Under the pieces are notes generated by a model, which had not been told where the DNA came from, ran no database searches, and saw only the letters and a program-made list of their open reading frames with translations. From positions 160,001 through 224,000 of the IMG/VR virus record IMGVR_UViG_3300021256_000002: a stretch of DNA of 64,000 nt; one strand, given 5' to 3'. This document shows positions 5,456 to 60,240 of the stretch, piece after piece. Within the stretch, counting starts at the first letter, position 1. The number at the start of each line of letters is the position of its first letter. The translations under genes and the position numbers were made by a program. Source of the stretch: a virus. Its lineage: Duplodnaviria > Caudoviricetes.

Positions 5456-7864
5456 TTATGCGTTAGGAACTACTACAAAGCGACCTTCGGATTCAGTTAC
5501 CTGATAACCTTCACCAATCCATTCATCATTCGGTCTAGCGCTGAACGAACCACCAGTAATGGTAAGCGTTACAGTATGCTTAGTACCGATAATAAAGATT
5601 GGAATACCAGTAGGTGCGTCGAACGTACCGCCAGTAATGGTGCAAGTAACATCACCGTAGCGAGCGTTCAAATTGATTACGGCTTCAGCCATACCAGCAG
5701 TGCCGTCTCCACCTTCACCAGTATCACCGTTACCAAGAACGCTAAGTTTACCACCGTTGATTTCAATAACGCCATCGTTCGCAGCAATAGCACCAGCACC
5801 ACCACGAATAATACCATCATTAACAACCAACTTACCTTTATGCGGATGGTAAATTGCATAGTCAACAGTAGAAGTCAACGTACCACCATTCACTGTCGTA
5901 ACAGCATCAGCGTTAGTCAACGAACCGTTACCAGACAAGCAATACCAGCCAGCAGTGAGTTCACCAGAGTTGACGGTGATTTGAGCATCACTAAATCCGC
6001 ATACACCAAACTGACCCTTGTTTACGGGATCGTCTTCGATAACAGCGGAGATACCACCACCATCAAAGGTGAGAGAGCCACCTTCGCTAACCTGAATAAC
6101 ACCGCTTGCATGAGTTCTATCATACGGAGTGGTATTAACAACTTTAGCGGTACCAGTAATAGTCAAACTACCGTTTTCTACTGCGATACCAGAGTTGCTA
6201 CCACCATCAGAGGTAATATCGTTATCCATCTGAATCGCTATATCGTGCTTATCAATTACGATAGGAGTACCTACGCTATTGAGTGCTGCACTAACAGTGA
6301 GAGTATCACCAGGCAGCATCGTAGCTATAGCATCGCTAAGGTCTTCCGGGTTCTCGATGATATAGTCAACAGGAGTGTGCACACCATATTCAAGTTTCCA
6401 ACCTTTATTCGTAACGATAGCACGTTGGTCAGCGGAAAGCAGACTAGCTGATTCTACATCCAAGATATTCAACGTCGGAGCATCACTCGGATCCCCAGTG
6501 TACGGAACAAGACCGTCGAATAAGCTAAGGAGCGAATCAACGTCCAGATTCGTACCCTGAACCGAAAGAGAGACAGACAGAGTCTCAGGAACGACTCTCA
6601 GATACGACAGCTCGATACACTCATTGAACATCCCAGCTACAGCACTGGCAGTTGCAATCGAGGAGAAATCGATAGGAGTATCAATTTTCTCCAGAGAGCT
6701 ATCGCCATTGAACATGGATTTCATGGAAGTTACTCCGTGCGTAGTACCGAACGGATATACACGAACCATATTCGGACAACCGCTATACATACCGATTGCA
6801 GACGTTGCCTGTACCATACTGATTTCAGGACCAAACTTCAGAAGAGAGCATCCACTGAATGCGTAGTCGAAAATATGGCATCTTATAGTATTCATATAAG
6901 GCACCTGTTCCAACTTAGAGCATTCCTGAACGAATCCACCAATGTCATTTGCATACGCAAAGTTATACTGCGGAATCTCTTCCAGATTATAATCCTGGTA
7001 GAACATACGACGGAAAGATGTGGTGCTATTGGTACGAACCTTAGGACCAACTTTCAAGGTGCTATTCTGAGCATACTTCTGATAGCAGGACGCACCTGCA
7101 TTAGGAATATTCTCATTATACCACCAAAGCTGACCTGTGACGGCTTTCAACCATAAATCACCATCAAGAATTTCCTCATCTTTGTAATAATCCCCAAACA
7201 GCCAATGTGAAACGTCTTTACGAAGAGCGACCTCTTCACCTTTGTAAGCAAAATGCTTACCATCAGGAAGTGCTGTAATGTCATTCAATACAGACAGATT
7301 GCCGTCATGAGAATGCATTTTAGCAACCATATCATCAATATCTTCCGGAGAAGACTGAGGCAAGATATGTTTAAGAGCTTCCCAAGTGAGTTCAAGGTCT
7401 AAAGCTTCATGCTCGCAGACTTTTTCCCAACCTTTATCAAGGCTGGTGTAGTCTGCATCACTCGTTCTCTTATAAATAGCCCAACCCGAATCAACTGTCG
7501 GATCGGCACTTGCATCTAATACGAAACAAATAGAGCCGGGATTGACGTTATCAGCAGCGAGCATTGCTGGAATATCAGCAAATTCGATTTTGATATAAGT
7601 CATCCCATCTGGCATATTGTCAAGAGAAACGTATCCGTTTTCATCTAACAAACAGAGACCAAGTGGTTCACCAGCTTTTGCCAGTGCAAGCTTGTTCTTA
7701 GCAGTTAAATGCTCGTTGGAGCTTACGTGATCCCATACAGTGACACCAGATCTACCTTCTATCTCAACCTGTTGAGCAACAGTTTTGGGAAGCATGGTAA
7801 TAATCTCATGGTTCTCGGGATTACGATAAACGAAACCAACAAGCCTTTCTACCGTAATAGCCAT
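5456..7864 (-). CDS. putative tail-fibre/adhesin: shared N-terminal module, LRR region, Gly-rich beta-helix C-terminus
   Basis: EFADIPAML..DASADPTVDSGWAIY module; MF.GC..L repeats; (I/V).GG repeats; late promoter at 7895-7906. Confidence 0.7.
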   Translation of the reverse strand: MAITVERLVGFVYRNPENHEIITMLPKTVAQQVEIEGRSGVTVWDHVSSNEHLTAKNKLALAKAGEPLGLCLLDENGYVSLDNMPDGMTYIKIEFADIPAMLAADNVNPGSICFVLDASADPTVDSGWAIYKRTSDADYTSLDKGWEKVCEHEALDLELTWEALKHILPQSSPEDIDDMVAKMHSHDGNLSVLNDITALPDGKHFAYKGEEVALRKDVSHWLFGDYYKDEEILDGDLWLKAVTGQLWWYNENIPNAGASCYQKYAQNSTLKVGPKVRTNSTTSFRRMFYQDYNLEEIPQYNFAYANDIGGFVQECSKLEQVPYMNTIRCHIFDYAFSGCSLLKFGPEISMVQATSAIGMYSGCPNMVRVYPFGTTHGVTSMKSMFNGDSSLEKIDTPIDFSSIATASAVAGMFNECIELSYLRVVPETLSVSLSVQGTNLDVDSLLSLFDGLVPYTGDPSDAPTLNILDVESASLLSADQRAIVTNKGWKLEYGVHTPVDYIIENPEDLSDAIATMLPGDTLTVSAALNSVGTPIVIDKHDIAIQMDNDITSDGGSNSGIAVENGSLTITGTAKVVNTTPYDRTHASGVIQVSEGGSLTFDGGGISAVIEDDPVNKGQFGVCGFSDAQITVNSGELTAGWYCLSGNGSLTNADAVTTVNGGTLTSTVDYAIYHPHKGKLVVNDGIIRGGAGAIAANDGVIEINGGKLSVLGNGDTGEGGDGTAGMAEAVINLNARYGDVTCTITGGTFDAPTGIPIFIIGTKHTVTLTITGGSFSARPNDEWIGEGYQVTESEGRFVVVPNA

Positions 7865-7894
7865 TTGGAATTCACCTTCTTTCTATTAGTATTT

Positions 7895-7946
7895 TATTCA
7901 TCTGTCAAAATATCAGTGTGCGCGTACTTAACACAACAAGGAAGTA
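7895..7946. promoter_or_regulatory. divergent pair of late-class promoters
   Basis: GACA-GATGAA-TA on minus (7895-7906) and AACA-AGGAAG-TA on plus (7935-7946). Confidence 0.6.
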
Positions 7947-7991
7947 ATCCAAAGGTGAATAACCAATTAAAATAGAAAGGAATGATAAGCA

Positions 7992-8765
7992 ATGCCTATC
8001 AATACTCAGAAATTGATTACTTTGACTCGGGTAAATGCTGACAAGTCCGTTACTGCATACTATCCGAAAACAGTCTCCAGCCAGGTTTACCTGACGGATA
8101 CGCTCACCGTTAAGGATCACGTTGACAATACCAACATCCATCTGTCCGCTGCTGAACGTTTGATGTTCACGAACATGAACCAGGCTAACGGCCTCGTACA
8201 GCTGGATTCCAATGGTTTTGTGCCGACTGCAAATATCAACCCGGCCGTTCTGGCTATCACGACTGAATTCGCTGATATCGCTGCTATGCTCGCAAGCACT
8301 GGTGTTGAACCGGGCCAGCTGGTATGGGTAAATGATGCTTCTGGTGATACGACGGTTACCTCCGGTTGGGCTATCTATCGTAAACGTGTTGGCGTAGGTA
8401 TCGACTACACGGATCTGGCTGGTTGGACGAAGGTTGCTGAATCTGAAGGCCTGGACGTTGTTGTTCAGTGGGCTAACATTCAGGGCAAACCGACCTCTGC
8501 CGTTGCAGATATCGATGACGCTGTTACGAAGAAGCATGAACACACCGACCTGACGGCTCTGAACAAGCTGACGGATGCTGGTAATGGCCTGCTCTATGAC
8601 GGCGCTGCCGTTGCTATGCAGAGCGAAGTTTCCCATCTGGCTCTGGCTACGGAAGCCAATGTTGATACCGTTGCAGCTGGCATGGCTGAAAACGACGTTA
8701 TCTTCGTTGTTACGAATGATAACTTCACGATGCCGACGACGGTTCCGACTCAGCCGACGACCTGA
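7992..8765 (+). CDS. putative virion protein made almost entirely of the shared fibre N-terminal module
   Basis: YYPKT..QV, GLVQLD.NG, EFADIAAML, DASGDTTVTSGWAIY; strongly biased codon usage suggests high expression. Confidence 0.7.
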   Translation: MPINTQKLITLTRVNADKSVTAYYPKTVSSQVYLTDTLTVKDHVDNTNIHLSAAERLMFTNMNQANGLVQLDSNGFVPTANINPAVLAITTEFADIAAMLASTGVEPGQLVWVNDASGDTTVTSGWAIYRKRVGVGIDYTDLAGWTKVAESEGLDVVVQWANIQGKPTSAVADIDDAVTKKHEHTDLTALNKLTDAGNGLLYDGAAVAMQSEVSHLALATEANVDTVAAGMAENDVIFVVTNDNFTMPTTVPTQPTT

Positions 8766-21249: not shown

Positions 21250-22845
21250 ATGAAGCTTATTCTTTTAGATACAGAAAAATTCTGTCGATTGAATATGCTG
21301 AAAGAAGTAACCAATCCAATTGTACTTGATAGAGGATATACTCCTACATCAGATGGGCTTCTTTCAACATATATTTTTGGCACTTCAACCAAAGATAGAA
21401 AATCTACTTTTGCATATATTGATCTTCATTGCCATGTATTCCATCCGGTAATATATAAGTATATTCGTAGAATGGATAATCGTGTTGAAGGGATAATTGC
21501 TGGTAGAATACGTGTACGTATCGACTCAAAGACTGGGTATTTGATAACTGATGAAGAAGGTAGTACAGGAATTGATTTCCTATACAATAACTGGAACAAA
21601 ATCAAATGGCCTAAGAATGAATCGAAGATGAGATCCGATACGATTGACCTTCTTGCAGCGTATACGAGAAATGAAATTTTCATGAGTAAGCAAATCGTAT
21701 GTCCTGCATTCTATCGAGATGTAAATCTTCAGTCTTCTAAATCTGGTAGACCATCTATTCATAAAATCAACCGTCCGTATTCAAAGCTCATCCAGCTTGC
21801 TGGTACTTTGGATAATGGTGATTTTGCATTCAATTTGAACTATACTAAGTTCATGATACAGAAAACTACGATAGAGATATACGACTACTTCAAGAATCGT
21901 ATAGAGAAAAAACGTGGTTTGATAAAGCAGAATCTTCTGGGTAAGTCAACTGACTACGGTGCTCGTTTGGTAATTACCAATGAAGAGTTCATCTACAATT
22001 CAGTTGAAGAAATGCCGACATCATTCTACAAAACAGGCGTACCTGTTTCGTATTGTATGGCAATGGCAGCACCATTCTTCACTGGATGGATTCAGAATTT
22101 CTTCATTAGGGAATTTGAAGATTACCAATACAAATATCCGGGTTATGATGTAGAAAATAAAAAACCTATATACGTAGAACTTGAAGATCCTAGGATACAA
22201 TTCTCTGATGAGGTTGTACATGAGATGATGGAAGAATACTTACACTCATATGAGCACAGATTCGATCCAATATATCTCAAAACCAAAGATAAGAGATTTC
22301 CTAAGATAACTTTCCGTTTCAAAGGATACAGTGTAGCGGATTCTGAATTCGATCCTCATGACCCAGAGAAATTGTTGAGTCAGCGACCATTTACTTTAAC
22401 TGACTTAATGTACTTAGCTGCTGTTAATATATGTGAAGATAAACACATATATATCACTCGCTATCCGATGTCTGACCATTTAGGTATCTTCCCTTGCGGT
22501 ATAGCGGTATTATCAACTACGGTAACAGAAAAAATGATGATAGACGGAAAAGAATATCCGTTCTACCCAAAAGTTGAAGTTGGAAAAAGCTCTGCAAATG
22601 CATTTAAAGAAGTCTTAACTCTGTCTAATTGTTACTTAAAAGCACTCGGCGGCGACTATGATGGCGACCAAATCACTGGTAAAATAGTATTCTCACAAGA
22701 GGCTAATGCAGAGGCTGAAAGAATCATGCGGTCGTTTACGAATGTACTCGGAATTGATGGTGGTTGCATCAGAAAGACTGAGATTGAAGGCATTCAGACG
22801 TTATACTGCATGAGTCGTTGGAAAAATCCAAACGAAAAATTTTAA
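21250..22845 (+). CDS. virion multisubunit RNA polymerase, beta' N-terminal/catalytic subunit
   Basis: DGLLS..IFG, AYIDL, LIKQNLLGKSTDYGARLVI, TRYP, catalytic GGDYDGD; late promoter supports the virion assignment. Confidence 0.9.
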   Translation: MKLILLDTEKFCRLNMLKEVTNPIVLDRGYTPTSDGLLSTYIFGTSTKDRKSTFAYIDLHCHVFHPVIYKYIRRMDNRVEGIIAGRIRVRIDSKTGYLITDEEGSTGIDFLYNNWNKIKWPKNESKMRSDTIDLLAAYTRNEIFMSKQIVCPAFYRDVNLQSSKSGRPSIHKINRPYSKLIQLAGTLDNGDFAFNLNYTKFMIQKTTIEIYDYFKNRIEKKRGLIKQNLLGKSTDYGARLVITNEEFIYNSVEEMPTSFYKTGVPVSYCMAMAAPFFTGWIQNFFIREFEDYQYKYPGYDVENKKPIYVELEDPRIQFSDEVVHEMMEEYLHSYEHRFDPIYLKTKDKRFPKITFRFKGYSVADSEFDPHDPEKLLSQRPFTLTDLMYLAAVNICEDKHIYITRYPMSDHLGIFPCGIAVLSTTVTEKMMIDGKEYPFYPKVEVGKSSANAFKEVLTLSNCYLKALGGDYDGDQITGKIVFSQEANAEAERIMRSFTNVLGIDGGCIRKTEIEGIQTLYCMSRWKNPNEKF

Positions 22846-26753: not shown

Positions 26754-27449
26754 ATGAAGGTTAAACTGATTGATTACACGCAAAATGCTGAAGCTCTGGT
26801 AGCAACTGGAGCTAGAGTATGTTATTCTGCAACAGAGGTCGATAAGTTATTCGACGATATAAAGGATAACAAAGAAACTCAGCAGAAAATGATAAAGAAA
26901 GTGATTGAATCTAATCACATGAGTTGTTTAGAGCATATCTATTTCACTTTCGTAATTGGTGACGTATCTCGAATCATGTCCCATCAGTTTGTGCGCCATC
27001 GGTTGATGAGTCCTCATGAAAGAAGCCAAAGATATGTTAACCTTAACAAAATCAATGATGGCGAAAATTACTGCGTTATTCCAGATACAATCCTTGTAAA
27101 TTCAGATGCTTTATGCACATTTCTCGATGCAGTTGAAGAAGCAAAGTTTGCTTATGATAAAATGATAGAAGCTGGTATTCCTGAAGAAGACGCTCGATAT
27201 GTTCTTCCTGGTGCTACAAAAACAGCACTGATTGCTTCCTTCAATGGCCGTAGTCTTATTCATTTCCTGAGACTCAGATGTTGCAATCGCGCGATGACAG
27301 AAACACGCAAAGTTGCAATCGAAATGCTCAAGCAAGTTCGTGAAGTTTGCCCTACTATTTTCAACCAAGTCGGTCCTGGGTGTTATATGGACGGTAAATG
27401 CCCTGAAGGTAAAATGAGCTGCGGTAAGCCCGTTCTTGAAATATGGTAA
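26754..27449 (+). CDS. thyX: FAD-dependent thymidylate synthase
   Basis: H.S.LEH, HQFVRHR.MS..ERSQRY, EDARYVLP, HFLRLR. Confidence 0.95.
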   Translation: MKVKLIDYTQNAEALVATGARVCYSATEVDKLFDDIKDNKETQQKMIKKVIESNHMSCLEHIYFTFVIGDVSRIMSHQFVRHRLMSPHERSQRYVNLNKINDGENYCVIPDTILVNSDALCTFLDAVEEAKFAYDKMIEAGIPEEDARYVLPGATKTALIASFNGRSLIHFLRLRCCNRAMTETRKVAIEMLKQVREVCPTIFNQVGPGCYMDGKCPEGKMSCGKPVLEIW

Positions 27450-27460
27450 TCGGATTAAAT

Positions 27461-27496
27461 TAATAGGATAGGTAGTTGATTCTACCTATCCTATTT
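27461..27496. terminator. bidirectional terminator
   Basis: AATAGGATAGGTAG/CTACCTATCCTATT inverted repeat. Confidence 0.75.
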
Positions 27497-27499
27497 TAG

Positions 27500-28147
27500 T
27501 TAGTATCTCGGATGATACGGTACGATATTCTTCCATTCAACGTAATTATCATTACGAAGATGGAGATATGTCTGACCGTTCTTCAATGCGATATACAAAT
27601 TCTCATCGTATGGTATTCCCATAGGTTCTTTCAATTCAGGAGCCATTACGTATATCATATGTTGAGTAACCGAAGCTTTCTCCTTATCTGCTTTAGATAA
27701 GAAATTGTATGTGTTAGATACAAACTTGCGATTAATTTGTTCCTGATACTTCACATCAGATAAGAAGATTATCTGACGGCTATCATCGGGTAAATTTGTA
27801 ATCAACCCTCCATATGGGCTGTAGTGCTTGAAATACCTCAAGAATACATTCCTGAATACAATTGGTTCATCTCGTTCAGAATGAACCACTTCTTCTGTCA
27901 AAATACTATGACGGCTGATAACAAACATCTGATACTTGGAGTTATCATGCTGCTTTGGGAAAGATTTCAGTACATACATCAAATCTATCTTTCCTTTCAA
28001 CGTACCAGGTATATTCGTATCACCATACTCATATTTAGCGATTGGTTTATTGACAGGAGTATCTCTAATATTAAACATAGTCGTAGGAGTTAAACTTGAA
28101 AACTTCCTACAATACTCGATATAACTTGGAGGCATTTGTATTGGCAT
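27500..28147 (-). CDS. late hypothetical protein
   Basis: RBS and GACA-N6-TA at 28163-28174. Confidence 0.7.
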   Translation of the reverse strand: MPIQMPPSYIEYCRKFSSLTPTTMFNIRDTPVNKPIAKYEYGDTNIPGTLKGKIDLMYVLKSFPKQHDNSKYQMFVISRHSILTEEVVHSERDEPIVFRNVFLRYFKHYSPYGGLITNLPDDSRQIIFLSDVKYQEQINRKFVSNTYNFLSKADKEKASVTQHMIYVMAPELKEPMGIPYDENLYIALKNGQTYLHLRNDNYVEWKNIVPYHPRY

Positions 28148-34422: not shown

Positions 34423-36185
34423 ATGGCTTACTAGAGAAGTATGATGGTCCTTTGTTATTAGGTGAAATAAACCCTAAGGACTGGGTTATGTGTAACACCA
34501 TATATCAAAGGCCAACAAAAGAAACCAAATGGCATGATTATGCATATTTGGTATTGAAGAATGTAAAGACCGGGGAGAAGAAGTTGTTTACTGCAATGGA
34601 CCCGGAAATGCTCATATATGTAGTAAATGAAGATGAGCGGGACTACAATTACTGTCCCGCTTATAGACCATTGAAAGAGTGTACTCCAGTACGAGTTAAG
34701 TATAAAGCTGTACTGGATGCAATTGCTCAAGTTGGAGGAGAAAAGTGCAAACAATTCTTGACTTCCAACAGAAAAGCCGGTGCTAGAAATCTGTGTAAGG
34801 AGCTTTTTAAGTATCCTTATGTACTTGGAGCCGACTATGATTATACAGATTATCTTAGAATAGAATGGGCTTTGCATTATCATAACAACGATATCCATGT
34901 TCACGTAGATAAGATGTTCATGGATATCGAGGTTGATGGTATTGATGTACCAGGGTTCCCAAAACCTGGTGAATGCCCAGTTAATGCAGTTTCATTAATA
35001 GATGAAGCTTCATCAACCGTATTCGTATTCTTACTGAGAAATGAAAAGAATCCTCAGATAGAAGAATTCGAACGGAATATGAATACGCATATTGCGGAAT
35101 ATCACGAAGCTTTTGATGAAAGTTATGGTGAGTTAGATTATAAAATAGCATTCTTCGATAAAGAGATAGATTTGATTGCAGCGGTATTTGAAGTAATCAA
35201 TACTCTCAAACGAGATATCTTAGGTATCTGGAATATGGGGTTCGATATTCCGTTCCTCATTGAGCGTATTCGAGTACTTGGGTACGACCCTGCAAGCATT
35301 ATTTGTAGCCCAGATTTTGCTACAAAGATTCTCAATTATCGTAAAGATACAAAACAGCATGATTTCAAGAGAAAGAATGATGTATTCTTAGTAACTGCGT
35401 ATACGGTATATATCGACCAGATGGGTACATATATCAAGATACGTAAACAATTCGCTGAGCAGAAGTCTTTGAAGTTGAATGCAATTGCTCAGAAAGAGTT
35501 GAAGGATACAAAACTTGATTATAGCGATGAAGCTAACATCAAGACTTTACCTTATGAGAATTTCCCGCTATTCGTAATGTATAATATTAAGGATACTTTA
35601 TTACAGCTTGGGATTGAAAGAAAGACCCATGATATGGATACGGTATTCTTAAATACCTTATCGAATGCGACTCCGTTTCATAAGATATTCAGTCAGACTC
35701 AAGTACTGAAGAATCATGCATATATATCGTATTTTACTCAAGGTTATATCATTGGTAACAATCGTAATATCGATTATACCAAAGATAGATTTAATGATGA
35801 TGAAGAGGAAGCGGCGGTCAAGAAGAAGAAAGAGGTTGAGGGCGCACTTGTTGGTGACCCTGAACTCAATCTTCATGTCGGAATCGAAATGTATGGGATG
35901 AAATCAAAATACATCTTCCCATATGTAATCGACTTTGACTATAGCTCCCTTTACCCATCGATAATTATAGCGTTCAATATTGGTCGTGAAACGATGATTG
36001 GCAAATTGGTTCTTGATGGATTTGCTCATCTGAATCCTGACCCAACTGATATTCTATATGACCAAGGACGTCATTTTATAGAAGCTTTATTATCCAAGGA
36101 CTATTCGTATATAGGGAAGACGTATTTCAATCTTCCCGATATAGAAGAATGTGTAAAGGACTTGGATGAGATATATAAAATCTAG
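34419..36185 (+). CDS. family B DNA polymerase, N-terminal part (3'-5' exonuclease and motif A)
   Basis: ExoI DIEV, ExoII WNMGFDIPFL, ExoIII YNIKD, motif A DFDYSSLYPSII; motifs B and C absent. Confidence 0.9.
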   Translation: MNGLLEKYDGPLLLGEINPKDWVMCNTIYQRPTKETKWHDYAYLVLKNVKTGEKKLFTAMDPEMLIYVVNEDERDYNYCPAYRPLKECTPVRVKYKAVLDAIAQVGGEKCKQFLTSNRKAGARNLCKELFKYPYVLGADYDYTDYLRIEWALHYHNNDIHVHVDKMFMDIEVDGIDVPGFPKPGECPVNAVSLIDEASSTVFVFLLRNEKNPQIEEFERNMNTHIAEYHEAFDESYGELDYKIAFFDKEIDLIAAVFEVINTLKRDILGIWNMGFDIPFLIERIRVLGYDPASIICSPDFATKILNYRKDTKQHDFKRKNDVFLVTAYTVYIDQMGTYIKIRKQFAEQKSLKLNAIAQKELKDTKLDYSDEANIKTLPYENFPLFVMYNIKDTLLQLGIERKTHDMDTVFLNTLSNATPFHKIFSQTQVLKNHAYISYFTQGYIIGNNRNIDYTKDRFNDDEEEAAVKKKKEVEGALVGDPELNLHVGIEMYGMKSKYIFPYVIDFDYSSLYPSIIIAFNIGRETMIGKLVLDGFAHLNPDPTDILYDQGRHFIEALLSKDYSYIGKTYFNLPDIEECVKDLDEIYKI

Positions 36186-36197
36186 GAGGTATTTTTA

Positions 36198-36803
36198 ATG
36201 GAGACAGATATCAATCAGAACGAAGCACTACATAAGGAGATAATGAGTGAGCTTTATCAGCTTTATGTAGGAAAATTTCCTATTCAACAGGACATGTTCC
36301 ACATCGGTGTTATTGGAAGCGGTAACGAATACATGTCTGGTAGATTGGCGCTTGCACTTAGTAAGTTTAAACGACTGAGTAAGGTTCATGCAAATGGTGC
36401 TGATATGCCACCAATAGTAATATATTCAGTGACCGAAAGTATTCGTAAGAGTTTGATGGATTTTGCTATTGAAGTCACCTATGCATTGGTTGAACTCGCA
36501 GACGAAGGTGGTGAGGCACCAAAGTTTGTTAAGAAGACATACGATGATCTTCATAAGCTTTATATCAAAAAGAATATGGATTATGGCGACAGCTTCCATT
36601 TAACTTTCCTTGAAGAAGGATTTGCCATGTCAAGGATTCGTCTTAATGATAAAGTTAGCAGGTTCAGTACTTTATCTAAGACCAAAGATCTTAAAGGTCA
36701 GGTATCAGATGAAAGTATTCAGGATACCTTGTTAGATGCGTTGAATTATTCTGTTATGAGTGTAATGGAGATAGACCGCGATGGCAAAAAAAGTGCAGAG
36801 TGA
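36198..36803 (+). CDS. DUF1599 / nucleotide-modification-associated domain protein
   Basis: KKNMDYGDSF...IRLNDK..R...DESIQDTLLDALNY. Confidence 0.75.
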   Translation: METDINQNEALHKEIMSELYQLYVGKFPIQQDMFHIGVIGSGNEYMSGRLALALSKFKRLSKVHANGADMPPIVIYSVTESIRKSLMDFAIEVTYALVELADEGGEAPKFVKKTYDDLHKLYIKKNMDYGDSFHLTFLEEGFAMSRIRLNDKVSRFSTLSKTKDLKGQVSDESIQDTLLDALNYSVMSVMEIDRDGKKSAE

Positions 36804-37455
36804 TTGGCTTGATAATTCCAAGCTGAGAAAACCTTTATATGAGTTTAATCAAGCAATCAAGCAAGTCTATACTGAGTATAGATTCCTTGACGACTTGGTG
36901 ATTCCATTGTTTATGAATTCAATCAAGAATAAAACGCTCTTCAAAAAGAGCCTGTTTCATTGGCGCGGTAAGAAATGGGACTTCTTGAATAACTGTGCAG
37001 TTGACCCTGAAGGACTCAATAAAGCCCTCAAGAATAAGGGTTATGAGTATCGTGAAGATGGTACTGAAAAGTATCTCAAGAGCTTGAAAGATGGTGAAGA
37101 GTACTTCGTCAGCACAGAACTTAGCGAAAAACAGATTGAAGATTCTGGCTCGTACATTGGAATGACTGAACTTAGAAGAATCCGTGCAAATGAACCAATT
37201 GGAGGGTATGTTCTAAGTCCTGAAGACATTAAAGCTCTGCTGGAGTATCAATCTATTGAACGTGTAATTGCGAACGATGATGGTATCGACGTGAAGATGA
37301 TTATGCTAAAAGAAGTCTTCCCAATGATTAAGAAAGCTGATACTATCAATATTACGGTCTATAAGACTGAACTGGAAAATGTGTATGATATCGTAATTGA
37401 ATCAATTACAGAGAGTTGGTCGTTTGTATCGGCACATTCTATCGTGAATTACTAA
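36781..37455 (+). CDS. hypothetical protein
   Basis: 224-aa ORF closing the recA-pol operon; terminator follows. Confidence 0.75.
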   Translation: MAKKVQSDWLDNSKLRKPLYEFNQAIKQVYTEYRFLDDLVIPLFMNSIKNKTLFKKSLFHWRGKKWDFLNNCAVDPEGLNKALKNKGYEYREDGTEKYLKSLKDGEEYFVSTELSEKQIEDSGSYIGMTELRRIRANEPIGGYVLSPEDIKALLEYQSIERVIANDDGIDVKMIMLKEVFPMIKKADTINITVYKTELENVYDIVIESITESWSFVSAHSIVNY

Positions 37456-37533
37456 GAGAAAAGGAATAGGCATAGCCTATTCCTTTTTTTGGTACTCGAC
37501 AAATCTTCTAATATATAAGGGGGCGAACTAATA

Positions 37534-39975
37534 ATGGCTAAAAAGACGTCTTCACAAGATATTGTAGATGCTGTCACGACTAAAAAGAATATAAATGATA
37601 TAAAGAAGCAAAATGACGTCATTCAGAAGATGATAAATAACTTTAAGTCTATTCCTATCATCTCTTCTAAACGTAATGACGATAAGCTTGATACTCTTGC
37701 AAAAGAGTTGGATGATATCATCGATAAAGAAACTGGTAGGTACGTGAGCAAATCACAAGTAACGTCAGGAAAGGATTTGGCGTTATTTTTTAATTCGCTC
37801 ATGACGAAAGCTATCAAAGGTGATAGTCCTACATCTAACTTCAATCCCAGTATGAATAAGCAGTCATTCACTGATTTGATGAATGACCAAACTGCTCAAG
37901 CTGCAATGGTTCTCAGCGAACGCTATAAGAATATCAATTCGATGTATGAAGATATTCGAATGGTAACTGAGCAGTTATCTGAATTGGCAACCGTTGTTGA
38001 TACTATGCGAGATACGATAACGAATAACGATAATCTTGTATCCGACTTATCTCGTATTGTGTCTTATGGTGAAATCAATAGTGATGATACTAAATCTGCC
38101 AATGACCTTGATACGGTTTATGCTATGGAGAAAGCGACTGGTATCAAGAATCTTCTTAAGAAGCAAATCATTCCGAATACTCTTAAGTATGGTAACTATT
38201 TCGTATATACTCAGCCGTATAAAGAAGTATTCGCCAAGTTTAAAGCTTATGAAGAAAAGTATAAGCATGATCCGTTTAGTATGAATGCTCGTTCATCTTC
38301 AAAGATTACTCGTGTAGGTGAAAACTACACGCCTGTACAAGAAGATACTCAGGTATTGACTGAGTTCTATAACGAGTTTTCTAATAGTATCAATGATACT
38401 TTCTTGAATGAAAGTGTTGATAATAAGTATAATGAAAAGAAGTTTGTTGATGACATGGAATCCTATTTTGAAGGTATTGACGTAATCAACGATGATTCTA
38501 TTCCTCTCATGGAAGATTCAGCCATCGCTGCATTAAGTAATGCTAAGGTTCGTGATTCTATTCTCAAAACTATCAATAACAAAAAGAAATCCAAGACTTG
38601 GAATGTTATCAGTCATTCTCCTGGCACTTCCAAGAATGGCGCATTTCATGATGGTGTACTTGGTGTGCATGGTGATGGATTTGACTTTGATAAAACTCAA
38701 GATAAGTATCTTGCTCAATTTGCAGATGTATCTGGTGTTTATATCAAGACATATGACCCTGGAAAGGTTATTCCTGTATACATGATGGATTATTGTATTG
38801 GATACTACGTTCTGTATGAGTCTGCTCAGAAAATCAGTTCTCATGCAATGAACGCAATTCATACTTTATCCCGTACATCTGTTCTCTTCCAGAATGATAT
38901 GAAGAAGAACTTCGAAGAGAAGTTGATTGGTATTATTGCAGATAGAATCTGTAAGAGTATCGATAAAGACTTCTTAAAGCAGAATAGTCAGTTCAAAGAA
39001 TTGATTGCGAATGCAATTTCGTATGATGATTTCTACAAGAAGTCATTCAAGGTTCAGTTCGTATCTTCTTCTTACATTACTCATTTCAAGATCAATGAAG
39101 ATCCTGATACTCATATGGGCACATCTGTACTGAAGAAATCTTTGTATTATGCGATGTTGTACTTGACTCTTCTGAATTTCAAAATCATCATGATTACGAC
39201 TCGTTCTATGGATACTCGAATGTTCCTTATTCACGTATCTGAAGAAGACCAAGATATATCTGGTCGTGTAAATAAGGTAATTGGGCAATTCAAACAGAAT
39301 CAGATTTCATACAACGACTTTGGTTCTGTTCGTGGTATTCTGTCCAAGGTTGGTAAAGGTCATGATATTGGTATTCCGATGACTCCATCTGGTGATAGGG
39401 CATTTGACGTTGAAGTAATGCAAGGTCAGCAGTATGATTTGGATACTCCATTGACCGATATGCTTCGTAAGGGAATGATTTCCAATACAGGCTGTCCTTC
39501 TGCAATGATGAGCGCGATGGATGAACTTGATTTCGCTCGTCAGTTACCGATGCTTCATGCAAATTACGTTGCTAGAATGATTGGTATACAGGAAGAAACT
39601 GAGCCAACTGTGACTGAGTTGTATCAAAAGCTGTTGTATTTTGGTGGATACGAAACTGACGATGATAAACTTGATTCTTTTGAATTCAAGTGGTCTCGTC
39701 CGAAGTCCATCAATATCACCAATACAACAGAAATGATAAGTAATGCTGATCAGATGGCTGAATTCATGATAAAGGTAATCGAGGGTGAAAACACTCAAAG
39801 TGATCCTCGTATCAAGGATAAGTACTTCAAATATATCATCACGAAGATGTTGTTACCTGGTGTATACGATTGGAGTCGTATGGAGCAGGATTTGAAGGAA
39901 TTCAAGCTCGACCTTCGTGCCGATATGAAGGAAGAACAGGCTGCTCAAATCAAAGCACAAGCAGACCAGCAGTAA
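37534..39975 (+). CDS. portal protein
   Basis: LKYGNYF, GTSVL, R.F.I.V, IP...G...DVEVMQG and TGCP pattern as in T4-like/jumbo portals; GACA-N7-TA upstream. Confidence 0.7.
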   Translation: MAKKTSSQDIVDAVTTKKNINDIKKQNDVIQKMINNFKSIPIISSKRNDDKLDTLAKELDDIIDKETGRYVSKSQVTSGKDLALFFNSLMTKAIKGDSPTSNFNPSMNKQSFTDLMNDQTAQAAMVLSERYKNINSMYEDIRMVTEQLSELATVVDTMRDTITNNDNLVSDLSRIVSYGEINSDDTKSANDLDTVYAMEKATGIKNLLKKQIIPNTLKYGNYFVYTQPYKEVFAKFKAYEEKYKHDPFSMNARSSSKITRVGENYTPVQEDTQVLTEFYNEFSNSINDTFLNESVDNKYNEKKFVDDMESYFEGIDVINDDSIPLMEDSAIAALSNAKVRDSILKTINNKKKSKTWNVISHSPGTSKNGAFHDGVLGVHGDGFDFDKTQDKYLAQFADVSGVYIKTYDPGKVIPVYMMDYCIGYYVLYESAQKISSHAMNAIHTLSRTSVLFQNDMKKNFEEKLIGIIADRICKSIDKDFLKQNSQFKELIANAISYDDFYKKSFKVQFVSSSYITHFKINEDPDTHMGTSVLKKSLYYAMLYLTLLNFKIIMITTRSMDTRMFLIHVSEEDQDISGRVNKVIGQFKQNQISYNDFGSVRGILSKVGKGHDIGIPMTPSGDRAFDVEVMQGQQYDLDTPLTDMLRKGMISNTGCPSAMMSAMDELDFARQLPMLHANYVARMIGIQEETEPTVTELYQKLLYFGGYETDDDKLDSFEFKWSRPKSINITNTTEMISNADQMAEFMIKVIEGENTQSDPRIKDKYFKYIITKMLLPGVYDWSRMEQDLKEFKLDLRADMKEEQAAQIKAQADQQ

Positions 39976-57443: not shown

Positions 57444-57493
57444 TATTATTCACCTACCTTTATTCTTCTGTATTACGAATAAAACATTAATGT

Positions 57494-57790
57494 AATGGGA
57501 TATTTCGATTTGGTTCCATTGGCGTTCAAAGTATACCTCCTTTTCAATATAGGGGGCGAAGTGGTGGAATTGCTTAACCGTTTCTAATCGGGGCGTCTTT
57601 CTTTCTACTGGTTGGATGATTTGCTCAGACCAGACAGTTTGTTAGGCTTTGTCAGTATTATAGCCCCCATTTATGTATACTATTTGCGATTTGCTTGGAA
57701 CCAATTTCCATATCCTATTCATGACTATTTCTCTTTCTAAATATAATACACAAAAGAAAGCTAGAGCGATTGTGCTCTAGCTTTCTATCC
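57494..57790 (+). ncRNA. candidate novel structured non-coding RNA
   Basis: Late promoter AACA-TTAATG-TA (57483-57494), nested long-range stems 57494-57719, terminator 57752-57786. Confidence 0.55.
57752..57786. terminator. bidirectional terminator
   Basis: AGAAAGCTAGAGC/GCTCTAGCTTTCT inverted repeat. Confidence 0.75.
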
Positions 57791-57796
57791 AACTTT

Positions 57797-60221
57797 TTAG
57801 ATAGTGCAGAAATTGTACAGGCTAATTGTTTCGTCTTTGATGAAACCGAAATCTGAATTAATTAAACCATTATTATGGTCAATCATAAAGCCTGTTCTTG
57901 GGAAGAAGACTTCCTTAAATGCACGTTTAAACTCAGTTGTAATTTCCTTGGTGATATTCAAAGTATCTCCATCAACAGTATCTTCACATAGAGTCGTTAC
58001 TTCTATGCAGTTCTCTTATGAACTTCTCCATGTCACCATGGAAGTTGAGACTATATCTTTCTTCCTATATAGGAAGTACCCCATTTCGATTTAAGGGATT
58101 CTCACCCACTCACTTGAGCCCTACTCCTGTAGCCGATTCTAACGGCACCATTTGGATAGTCGTTGAACGTTCCTATTTTCATAAGCTTCGCTGCTGATTG
58201 TCTCATTTGAGAGTTTCCAGCAATTAAAGGTTTGGTGAATCATAGATTACTCTATGAAACGACCTAATTTAAGTCAGCATTCAGAGATTGTAAACACTGA
58301 ATAGGTAAACTACAACTAAGGTCAGAATAATCATCCTTAACTGAGGCCACGTTCATAGCTAAATATGACCCCATATTGATTGTTGGATTCCGATTGAGTA
58401 AAATCGACGAGTCGAGTTTTTCATGCGTAAGGATATACTGCATGATGCTATATACCTTAGTATCAAATTCTCGATACGCATAATACCATCTCTCATATGC
58501 TTGTGAGTATGAATAACCTTCTAATTTAACCAGAAGGTTAACGATATCAGGCTTCCACAACTCACAGAACGCTACATCCTTTATATTCACATAGATTCGT
58601 TACTTCTATGCCGTTCTCTTATGAACTGCTACATGTCTCCATGTAGAGTAGACTATATCACCAACTCATATAGAGTTGCTCTCTATTTCGAGTTCACTTG
58701 AACCCTACTCCCATAAAGGGATAGTCGTTGAACATTCCTCCGTAGAGGCTTCGCTGCTGATTGTCTCATATGAGAGTTCCCAGCAATTAAGAGAGTTTTA
58801 CATATTATATCACTATAATACGCCGCTAATAACTAACGGTAAGCGTACTTCATATGAACGCAATGACGCATCCGGTACAATAACGCATCTAGCTGCATTG
58901 TTAATACGACCACCTAAAATCGATCTCCTTATACCTTACATTCACATAGAGTCGTTACTTCTATGCAGTTCTCTTATGAACTTCTGCATGTCATCATGCA
59001 GAGTAGACTATATCTTCATCCTATTCGATATGAATAGGAGGCTGCTGTTTCGATTTAAGGGGTTTTCACCCGCTCACTTGAGCCCTACTCCTGTTGACGA
59101 ATTTCACGTCCTAAGGGATAGTCGTTGAACGTTCTCTCTTACGAGAGCTTCGCTGCTGATTGTCTCGTTTTGTGATAGCTTGTATCCACGAGATTTCCCA
59201 GCAATTAAGCAACTTTTCCTATACAATTACTCGTATAGGGACCTATAAAGTTAAGCCCTTCGTTTTCATGAATAGACGTAAATACAGAATCGAATACCTG
59301 GTTAAGATTATTCTGTGCTCTAAAGAGCGTATTGTTAAGTTTTGCAATATTACTGGTTTTGATTTCATGCTCATCATTGATACGACAAACGTTACCATAT
59401 AAGGCGTTGTAACATCTATCTACTTTTCTATATGAGAATTTCTCATTAGAGAAGAATACTTCACGTAATACTGCGGAATAAACCGGAATTTTAGTTACGA
59501 AGATTTTATTCTTATTCTCCATGATGAGGTCATATTGTGCCTTGCGGTTTTTCTTCTTCCGGTAGAAGAAATCCATAATCTCATCAAATCTTTCGTGGAA
59601 TTCTATCATACCAATTCCGGCGAAAGGATTCTTGTTAAGGTCTACATCAGTCGTTCCTCCATAGAAACCATCAAGTTTCATATCTTTATCAAATCCAATG
59701 ATTTGAGACAGAATAGAGGTTTTATTTGCTTTACCAAAGAACACATCAAGTTCTTTATAGAGTAATGGTTGAATGATAGAGAATCTTGCATCGTTAATCA
59801 CTATATAAGCAAAGAGCTTGAGGTTCACATCTACGAACTCAACCTTTGTCCCGCAATCAGGGCATCTACGACCTTTGAAAATCTTACCAATCATCTTACC
59901 ACAATCGCATGAATATCTGTCGGCGAATGCGTTATCATCGAGCCAATCGGTGCCAAACAACGGAGAATGGATACCATACATTTCTTTAGTTCCTTTAGCC
60001 GATGGTTCAGAACTCTTATCGTTCTTAGGATTCTTCTTAAACGGTTTTGCTCTTACGATGAAACCGAATTTACGTTTCATATCGTTCTCAAAGTCAGCTT
60101 CCCAATCACGAATAACTGGCATAGGACCAATCGTCTCTGCATTGTACAGCTCAGGAACCAATTGCTGTGCAAGTTCGAGTTCTTTCGGCGTTAAGTTATA
60201 ATCGATACCTATATTCTTCAC
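57797..60221 (-). CDS. non-virion RNA polymerase beta' N-terminal/catalytic subunit, four exons (60221-59254, 58933-58836, 58577-58272, 57975-57797; 516 aa)
   Basis: Zn finger CDCG...CPDC; spliced junctions give GLIRRSILGGRINNAARCVIVP, LPYVAFCELWKP, LNRNPT and LNADFDGD. Confidence 0.93.
57976..58271 (-). ncRNA. group I self-splicing intron 3 (296 nt, no ORF) inside NAD|FDGD
   Basis: P1 GACU/GGUC, same core, terminal G; removal gives AAT GCT GAC T|TT GAT GGA GAT. Confidence 0.94.
58578..58835 (-). ncRNA. group I self-splicing intron 2 (258 nt, no ORF)
   Basis: P1 CCGU/GCGG, same P/Q/R/S core, terminal G; removal restores the codon T|AT. Confidence 0.92.
58934..59253 (-). ncRNA. group I self-splicing intron 1 (320 nt, no ORF)
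   Basis: P1 GGGCU/GGUCC with U-G, P AAUUGCUGG, Q AAUCAGCAG, R GUUCAACGACUA, S AAGAUAUAGUCU, terminal G, P10 CUUUAUA/UAUAAGG. Confidence 0.93.
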
Positions 60222-60240
60222 GTTGATATACCTTCCTTTC

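Follow-up and report, generated by a model that had tools for sequence, protein, structure and literature searches.

Three group IA introns without open reading frames, probably selfish mobile elements, in a predicted non-virion RNA polymerase gene of an uncultured gut jumbo phage

Why does the gene for a catalytic subunit of an RNA polymerase (RNAP) lie in pieces in a phage genome, and do the interruptions serve the phage or only themselves? The question is raised by positions 57797-60221, minus strand, of a 64,000-nt stretch of viral DNA (the window), which covers positions 160001-224000 of a virus record (IMGVR_UViG_3300021256_000002) that is 253,296 bp long and has direct terminal repeats. 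The source is an uncultured 253-kb AR9-like jumbo phage from the animal gut; the DNA runs holding the stretch are animal gut samples (sheep, bovine and unspecified gut). We find that the gene, by orthology a predicted non-virion RNAP (nvRNAP) beta'-N gene, which covers the N-terminal half of beta', is interrupted by three group I introns of subgroup IA that carry no open reading frame (ORF), and we estimate a probability of roughly 80% that we are dealing with selfish mobile elements in such a gene and not with a regulatory switch. The distinction matters for annotation as well: where the introns are not recognised, the gene is read as four fragments and the phage seems short of an intact catalytic subunit. 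The parts of the locus, from 5' to 3' on the coding strand and in window positions, are as follows.

60231..60238, minus strand: Shine-Dalgarno-like AAGGAAGG, 9 nt 5' of the GTG start; the homologues start at this alignment position as well
59254..60221, minus strand: exon 1 (968 nt) with the GTG start at 60221, encoding residues 1-322 and ending 2 nt into codon 323
58934..59253, minus strand: intron 1 (site S1, between EGL and IRR), 320 nt, RF00028 score 100.5 bits
58836..58933, minus strand: exon 2, IRRSILGGRINNAARCVIVPDASLRSYEVRLP, 98 nt, aligning without gaps to intron-less homologues
58578..58835, minus strand: intron 2 (site S2, between RLP and YV), 258 nt, RF00028 score 91.3 bits
58272..58577, minus strand: exon 3, 306 nt, ending ...LQSLNAD plus 1 nt
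57976..58271, minus strand: intron 3 (site S3, splitting NAD|FDGD), 296 nt, RF00028 score 84.8 bits
57797..57975, minus strand: exon 4, 179 nt including the stop codon (57799-57797), 2 nt of the F codon followed by DGDTLNI...
57755..57786, minus strand: intrinsic terminator hairpin, a 13-bp stem followed by a T-rich tail, 10 nt past the stop codon

The inserts, their boundaries and the restored reading frame

Removal of the three inserts joins the exons into 1551 nt, i.e., 516 codons and a stop codon with zero internal stops, and leaves NAD|FDGD intact. The predicted product includes RRSILGGRINNAARCVIVPD, LLNRNPT and NADFDGD, the last of these at residues 455-461 of 516. The first-pass annotation of this DNA had claimed an unbroken 516-aa beta' upon removal of three inserts, one of which splits the active-site motif NADFDGD; both claims are borne out by exon joining, the splitting insert being intron 3. 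Its claim that every unspliced intron contains an early in-frame stop codon is likewise accurate: read-through from the upstream exon ends after 17, 8 and 3 codons in introns 1, 2 and 3, respectively.

Each of the inserts matches the covariance model RF00028 (Intron_gpI) on the minus strand, at 59263-58984, 58845-58629 and 58280-58026, with the scores listed above against a gathering score of 50, and model positions 1-253 are matched in all three, which upholds the first-pass identification of the inserts as group I introns. The model stops at P9, and the introns run approximately 50 nt further through a common 3' domain (repeat family D1); together, the repeated core and 3' domain make up repeat families D1-D6. 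In all three introns, the 5' splice site is preceded by U (U59254, U58836 and U58272), and the terminal base is G (omega-G, at 58934, 58578 and 57976 for introns 1, 2 and 3). In introns that occupy the same sites in the relatives designated L013, L016, L018 and L022, a G also lies immediately 5' of the conserved exon start. The P1 pairings are GGGCU/GGUCC in intron 1, CCGU/GCGG in intron 2 and (U)GACU/GGUC(G) in intron 3; thus, the bounding U and G and the individual P1 guides described by the first-pass annotation are all present in the sequence.

For the analysis of structure, 19 ORF-less introns from the present genome and its relatives were aligned with MAFFT and folded with RNAalifold. 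Compensatory changes were found in 44 of the 57 consensus pairs, in P1, P2, P3, P4, P5, P6, P7.1/7.2, P9 and P9.x. P1 covaries with the exon sequence, and 17 of the 19 introns retain the U.G wobble at the 5' splice site. The strands of P7 are near-invariant (CGACTA and GATATAGTCT are each identical in all 19); it should be noted that P7 and P8 were left unscored by RNAalifold owing to the pseudoknot and to an alignment shift. Between P7 and P3', all three introns contain an insertion of 34-80 nt at the position of P7.1/7.2, the hairpins of which covary (for example, GACG/CGTC, GCCG/CGGC, GCAG/CTGC and GCTG/CAGC). Because this insertion marks subgroup IA, the three introns are assigned to that subgroup. 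Intron 2 is of a short P7.1-7.2 type, and intron 3 has a long P7.1-7.2 form that we refer to as type A. A P10 pairing is clear in intron 1 (UAUA/UAUA), with UAU/AUA kept in the introns at the same site of L018 and L022. The longest stop-free stretch in any frame, on either strand, is 61-73 aa in the three introns, and there is no HNH_3 match inside them, in agreement with the first-pass statement that none of them encodes an endonuclease.

The splice junctions are supported independently by homologues of two kinds, namely uninterrupted proteins and DNA alleles that lack individual introns. A protein search yielded 76 relatives, six of which are uninterrupted and 510-513 aa long (P0006, P0008, P0011, P0012, P0020 and P0024). 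Aligned with these six, the spliced 516-aa product shows no gap at EGL|IRR, RLP|YV or NAD|FDGD, each of which is a highly conserved motif, and conserved residues result from all three split codons. At the DNA level, contig L023 is 95.5% identical over exon 1, which runs straight into exon 2 (GAAGGTCT|TATAAGAAG) and then into intron 2; this allele precisely lacks intron 1. In the sheep-gut DNA contig X4 record 18, 303 nt are skipped and 7 letters are replaced, so that the contig lacks exactly the 296 nt of intron 3 and reads GAC TTC GAC GGT GAT. The comparison with intron-less alleles that the first-pass annotation had proposed thus favours the predicted boundaries, as does its proposed colinearity check, in which the spliced protein is gap-free against uninterrupted homologues and colinear with PHROG 2987. 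A megablast search of the region against the phage collection returned no close DNA relatives, only short matches to the intron core, and a protein pattern scan of viral_contigs with exon 1 found no relatives.

The empty-site alleles also carry substitutions beside the sites. At S1 (L023:1350-1375), GGTCT stands for GGGCT and AAGAAG for AAGGAG; at S3 (X4 record 18), TTCGACGGT stands for TTTGATGGA. These substitutions may be co-conversion tracts or endonuclease-resistant variants.

Could the inserts be something other than introns, such as signs of a decayed pseudogene, an assembly artefact of repeats, inteins or other insertions? We rejected this explanation, to which we give next to no credence. 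It is true that the unspliced DNA shows ORF fragments only and that repeats common to the inserts could mislead an assembler. However, contigs of the source DNA run span the whole region with no listed difference, relatives from independent samples show the same architecture, a complete conserved protein is recovered, exact to the nucleotide, once the inserts are taken out, and the ribozyme pairs covary. Inteins are excluded because each insert contains in-frame stops.

The polymerase and the RNA evidence

The interrupted gene has its best phage matches in AR9 g270 and phiR1-37 g274, with one matching place per genome; exon 3 matches AR9 g270 and its relatives by tblastn. AR9 g270 is annotated as the nvRNAP beta'-N gene and is itself interrupted by an intron with the HNH gene g271, which agrees with the first-pass statement that group I introns occur in AR9 RNAP genes. 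The spliced gene is colinear with PHROG 2987 (exon 1 at positions 47-270 and exon 3 at 320-418). A Pfam search with single exons yielded one match only, below threshold, between exon 2 and positions 1-26 of RNA_pol_Rpb1_2. Elsewhere in the window (21250-22845, plus strand), there is an uninterrupted paralogue of 531 aa, a virion-type RNAP (vRNAP) beta'-N that matches PHROG 2986 and genes annotated as vRNAP beta', e.g., that of Madawaska. Given the best match of the gp270 type and the separate vRNAP paralogue, the predicted non-virion assignment, which had also been the first-pass one, holds by orthology with AR9 gp270. The product would accordingly be expected to form part of an enzyme that transcribes late genes and is not carried in virions.

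In the splicing pathway that we propose, the guide of each intron would base-pair with the last nucleotides of the upstream exon, forming a U.G wobble at the splice site; the 5' splice site would be attacked by free guanosine, and the terminal G would then direct exon ligation, such that three splicings would yield the single 516-codon frame. The excised intron could then circularise. The self-splicing chemistry and exon ligation in vivo are thus predictions from sequence, and the RNA evidence bears on one part of the pathway. In X19, a metatranscriptome of the same sample as the source DNA, record 9 is a 345-nt contig that follows, in RNA sense, positions 59066->58933 and then 59247->59037 with zero mismatches. 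The first 30 nt of this contig equal the last 30 nt, which is how an assembler with k=31 reports a circle. The circle is 315 nt long and is a circular permutation of intron 1, joined from the terminal G58934 to U59248 (intron position +6), with loss of the first five intron bases, UAACU. Just before the joint stands ACU, which could base-pair with the guide GGU and form a U.G wobble like that of the 5' splice site.

Group I introns circularise after splicing, and the circle in X19 supports the 3' boundary and the catalytic activity of intron 1. A homologous joint occurs in a related intron in a second RNA study (X20 record 11). In X19 the exons are devoid of cover, in contrast to their even cover in the DNA runs; the circle signal therefore does not resemble DNA carry-over. 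Introns 2 and 3 of the present genome are without cover in X19.

Intron sites across relatives and the question of gating

The distribution of introns in orthologous genes bears on the question of whether the interruptions are a fixed feature of the gene. In addition to S1, S2 and S3, two further sites are occupied in relatives, S0 near residue 135 and SX near residues 421-427, in NRNPT. The site map is given below, with aa identities to the present protein where stated.

L022 (258.5-kb ENA scaffold, gene at 5700-8120), ~50-60% aa: five ORF-less introns, at S0, S1, S2, SX and S3
L018, ~54% aa: four ORF-less introns, at S1, S2, SX and S3
L016, ~57% aa: introns at SX (with HNH) and S3
L019, ~53% aa: two adjacent introns at SX, and one at S3 (with HNH)
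L015, ~57% aa: intron at S2 (with HNH)
L021, ~53% aa: intron at S3 (with HNH)
L013, 85% aa: introns at S2 and SX; S1 absent
X4 sheep contig, close relative: SX present, S3 absent
L023, 95.5% DNA identity (exon 1): S2 present, S1 absent

S2 is empty in L016, L019 and L021, and S1, S2 and S3 are all empty in P0006 and five further homologues (46-59% identity). Across the clade, an orthologous gene thus contains from 0 to 5 introns, at the same five conserved sites, and the guide sequences are conserved by site. Shared occupied sites, together with site-conserved guides, therefore identify the sites as shared hot spots in conserved motifs, as is the case for homing elements, which are known to prefer conserved motifs (PMC12908238). 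Two marks of a mobile intron can be examined here. The first, presence/absence polymorphism among relatives, is found at S1, S2 and S3. The second, an intron-encoded endonuclease, is absent from introns 1-3; the HNH genes in the introns of relatives are of the HNH_3 type (at S2 in L015, at SX in L016, and at S3 in L019 and L021). We propose that the present introns are elements of a homing-endonuclease cycle whose endonuclease gene would have been lost or never present, and that they occupy homing hot spots common to the whole phage clade.

Two features of the map can be noted in passing. The beta'-N gene of L022, with five introns, is the densest case among the relatives here. In L019 (2327-2932), two complete group I introns stand back to back at SX, and the approximately 16 nt between them (ACAATAGATTTTGGCT) would be a micro-exon.

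The opposite view is that the introns gate the late polymerase, i.e., that its output, and hence the early-to-late switch, is controlled by three guanosine-dependent splicings, as the first-pass annotation had held. There is an argument for this view in the gene itself: each unspliced intron halts translation within 3-17 codons and one intron splits the catalytic motif, so that active beta' requires all three splicings; furthermore, seven of the eight introns of the genome are in RNAP subunit genes. The relatives point in the other direction. An allele that is 95.5% identical has no intron 1, a sheep-gut allele has no intron 3, and several homologues, at 46-59% identity, are free of introns altogether, whereas other relatives have as many as four or five at these conserved sites, in some cases with HNH genes, which is the pattern that homing would produce. 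Placement in conserved motifs is a preference already known for homing elements (PMC12908238), and intron positions in AR9-like RNAP genes are treated as highly plastic (bioRxiv 10.1101/2020.12.14.422802). Because near-identical phages differ in their introns and several homologues have none, conserved gating is unlikely, and we consider control of the switch by splicing to be quite improbable.

Several points nevertheless weigh against our preferred interpretation of the introns as selfish mobile elements in an nvRNAP gene. To rule out a regulatory role is beyond the reach of sequence, and both the route by which the introns came to their sites and the lack of such a role are what we infer. 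The circle of intron 1 is one low-depth contig (3.7x), known by its coordinates and not by its letters. In the RNA runs examined, there are no RNA contigs over the exons or over any ligated exon junction; the missing junction contigs argue neither for nor against splicing. In introns 2 and 3, P10 is weak, with only 1-2 pairs possible, so that of the P10 that the first-pass annotation saw in all three introns only that of intron 1 stands. Finally, the lineage calls presented below draw on stretches of only 70-200 nt, and bootstrap support is 75-100 at key splits but lower elsewhere.

An additional possibility, compatible with selfish introns, is that an occupied site protects the phage, given that such a site would be uncuttable by the homing endonucleases of co-infecting relatives. 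The HNH_3 genes that relatives bear at S2, SX and S3 are in line with this idea, and so are the substitutions beside the empty sites of intron-less alleles (GGTCT for GGGCT at S1, and the replacement at S3 described above). Moreover, the intron endonuclease of PhiPA3, which targets a vRNAP gene, harms co-infecting intron-less phage (PMC11620839). On the other hand, none of these HNH proteins has a known cleavage specificity, and the near-site substitutions may be ordinary divergence. We regard protection as a tentative suggestion that has the odds against it.

Intron lineages and known counterparts

If the introns are selfish mobile elements, where in the genome are their kin? Genome-wide, RF00028 has 10 matches that correspond to eight introns, two pairs of matches being the halves of HNH_3-bearing introns. 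The nvRNAP beta'-N gene and an RNAP beta-like gene have three introns each, and another RNAP beta gene and a kinase-like gene have one each; the first-pass proposal to look for more copies in the whole genome thus led to eight introns in four genes. The three other genes are as follows.

G000 225400-228300, minus strand: RNAP beta-like gene (PHROG 2943), three introns, just past the window end (L002, L007)
G000 26880-27960, minus strand: kinase-like gene (PHROG 4301; ...DISLKPKNF...LDYG), a type A intron at 27.1-27.8 kb with a 231-aa HNH_3 gene (L008)
G000 36095-39349, plus strand: RNAP beta-subunit gene (PHROGs 3148 and 14872) with a single type A intron, ORF-less, at ~37590-37915 in the conserved motif ...MSVKQSN (L006)

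The HNH_3 genes, of 231 and 235 aa, lie in the P6 loops of two sibling introns, the 235-aa gene being in the last intron of the beta-like gene (intron at G000 225.6-226.3 kb). Searches across the genome for HNH, GIY-YIG, LAGLIDADG_3 and T5orf172 found no match, and HNH_3 matches were confined to introns. The trans-acting free-standing endonuclease that the first-pass annotation had suggested as a means of spread therefore finds no counterpart in this genome, in which the two HNH_3 genes sit inside introns.

The signal of a whole-intron tree was mixed, in part through the exon flanks included; such a tree was therefore replaced by segment identities and by separate trees of the 5' and 3' halves. 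Over the 3' half (J6/7 to P9.2), intron 1 is closest to the HNH-bearing intron of the beta-like gene (85% identity); its identity is 82% to intron 3 and ~60% to S1 introns in other phages. In this half, the nearest relative of intron 3 is the HNH intron in the kinase gene (87%), with identities of 82-85% to three other introns of its own genome and ~60% to S3 introns elsewhere. Conversely, intron 2 shares 87% identity there with the S2 intron of L013 and only 68-69% with introns 1 and 3. In the 3'-half tree, a split with a bootstrap of 83 sets type A apart from all other introns; the type A set consists of introns 1 and 3, four other introns of the same genome with long P7.1/7.2, and the SX intron of L016, which bears HNH. 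The tree of 5' halves has a type A clade (bootstrap 94) that excludes intron 1, and in this tree intron 3 is paired with the kinase-gene intron (bootstrap 100). Intron 2 falls in a site-S2 clade with a bootstrap of 86-90. The P3-P6 segment of intron 1 is closest to the S1 intron of L018 (87%), and because its 3' half is of type A, intron 1 looks like a mosaic.

The guides of type A introns differ (GGUCC, GGUCG, GGCCG, GCCU and GCUC). For example, those of intron 3 and the kinase-gene intron are one base apart (GGUCG versus GGCCG), matching the exons GACU versus GGCU. Such differences fit with retargeting, or with an exchange of cores, inside the genome. The trees and identities suggest a family of six introns in this genome, spread over four genes, which includes intron 3 and the 3' half of intron 1 and of which two members still carry HNH genes; they also suggest that intron 2 represents a separate lineage tied to its site and common to other phages. 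The first-pass view that one ribozyme had spread locally thus survives in part: intron 3 and the 3' half of intron 1 do fall in one family with differing guides, but the spread would be genome-wide, and intron 2 is of another lineage. The same three sites are also occupied in distant relatives.

A stronger version would have the type A chassis colonise six positions in four genes by guide change only, with intron 1 a recombinant whose 5' half is like the S1 intron of another phage; we consider this possible but rather doubtful. If true, the type A chassis would have spread by reverse splicing or illegitimate homing, and the genome would document, in nature, ectopic transposition and core swapping between group I introns in a virus.

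With regard to known systems, introns in AR9-like RNAP genes have already been described, one of them in nvRNAP beta'-N, with numbers that vary between relatives (bioRxiv 10.1101/2020.12.14.422802). AR9 g270/g271 is the orthologous case. Its protein is ~30-35% identical to the present one, and its intron lies within the same catalytic Dx(D)GD motif, after GDYDG (GDYDG|D), 8 nt downstream of intron 3 here. However, AR9 has one intron with an endonuclease gene, whereas the present gene has three ORF-less introns, two of them at sites unused by AR9. The AR9-like Staphylococcus jumbo phages known as MarsHill, Madawaska and Machias have multi-intron RNAP, DNA polymerase and gyrase genes; unlike the gene described here, nvRNAP beta'-N of MarsHill is reported intact (bioRxiv 10.1101/2020.12.14.422802). 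The introns of the Staphylococcus jumbo phages were inferred from protein alignments only, whereas the present case comes with documentation of the intron class, the boundaries, alleles free of an intron and an RNA circle. In the nucleus-forming Pseudomonas phage PhiPA3, a mobile group I intron with HNH interrupts gp210 at a conserved aspartate of a vRNAP gene (PMC11620839); that intron is single and bears an endonuclease, in contrast to the present ORF-less introns, which have no known competitive effect. Phage genes with several small ORF-less introns of IA type are also represented by Twort orf142 and phage K lysK/polA (subgroup IA2), in a different host gene and phage family. Landthaler and Shub are said to have found, in 1999, three self-splicing introns in Twort orf142, and splicing in Twort was shown by experiment, whereas here it is predicted.

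The new elements are the particular clade, the map of intron sites, the alleles that lack introns, the circular RNA and the division into two lineages. The locus is a well-documented addition to a known pattern, in which RNAP genes of jumbo phages are hot spots of group I introns, and the coexistence of site-bound and genome-bound lineages provides a data set on how ORF-less introns persist and move.

Two minor observations concern intron 3 and the end of the gene. The P7.1-7.2 element of intron 3 (window 58081-58138) is, over 58 nt, ~87% identical to introns in more than 100 records of Staphylococcus K-type phages, e.g., under lysK, and also matches Listeria phage LPJP1 and RNAP genes of Vibrio jumbo phages, which suggests a widely shared ribozyme module. 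Between the terminator of the gene and the next gene (442-aa product, PHROG 21946) lies a non-coding gap of 300 nt (window 57483-57790).

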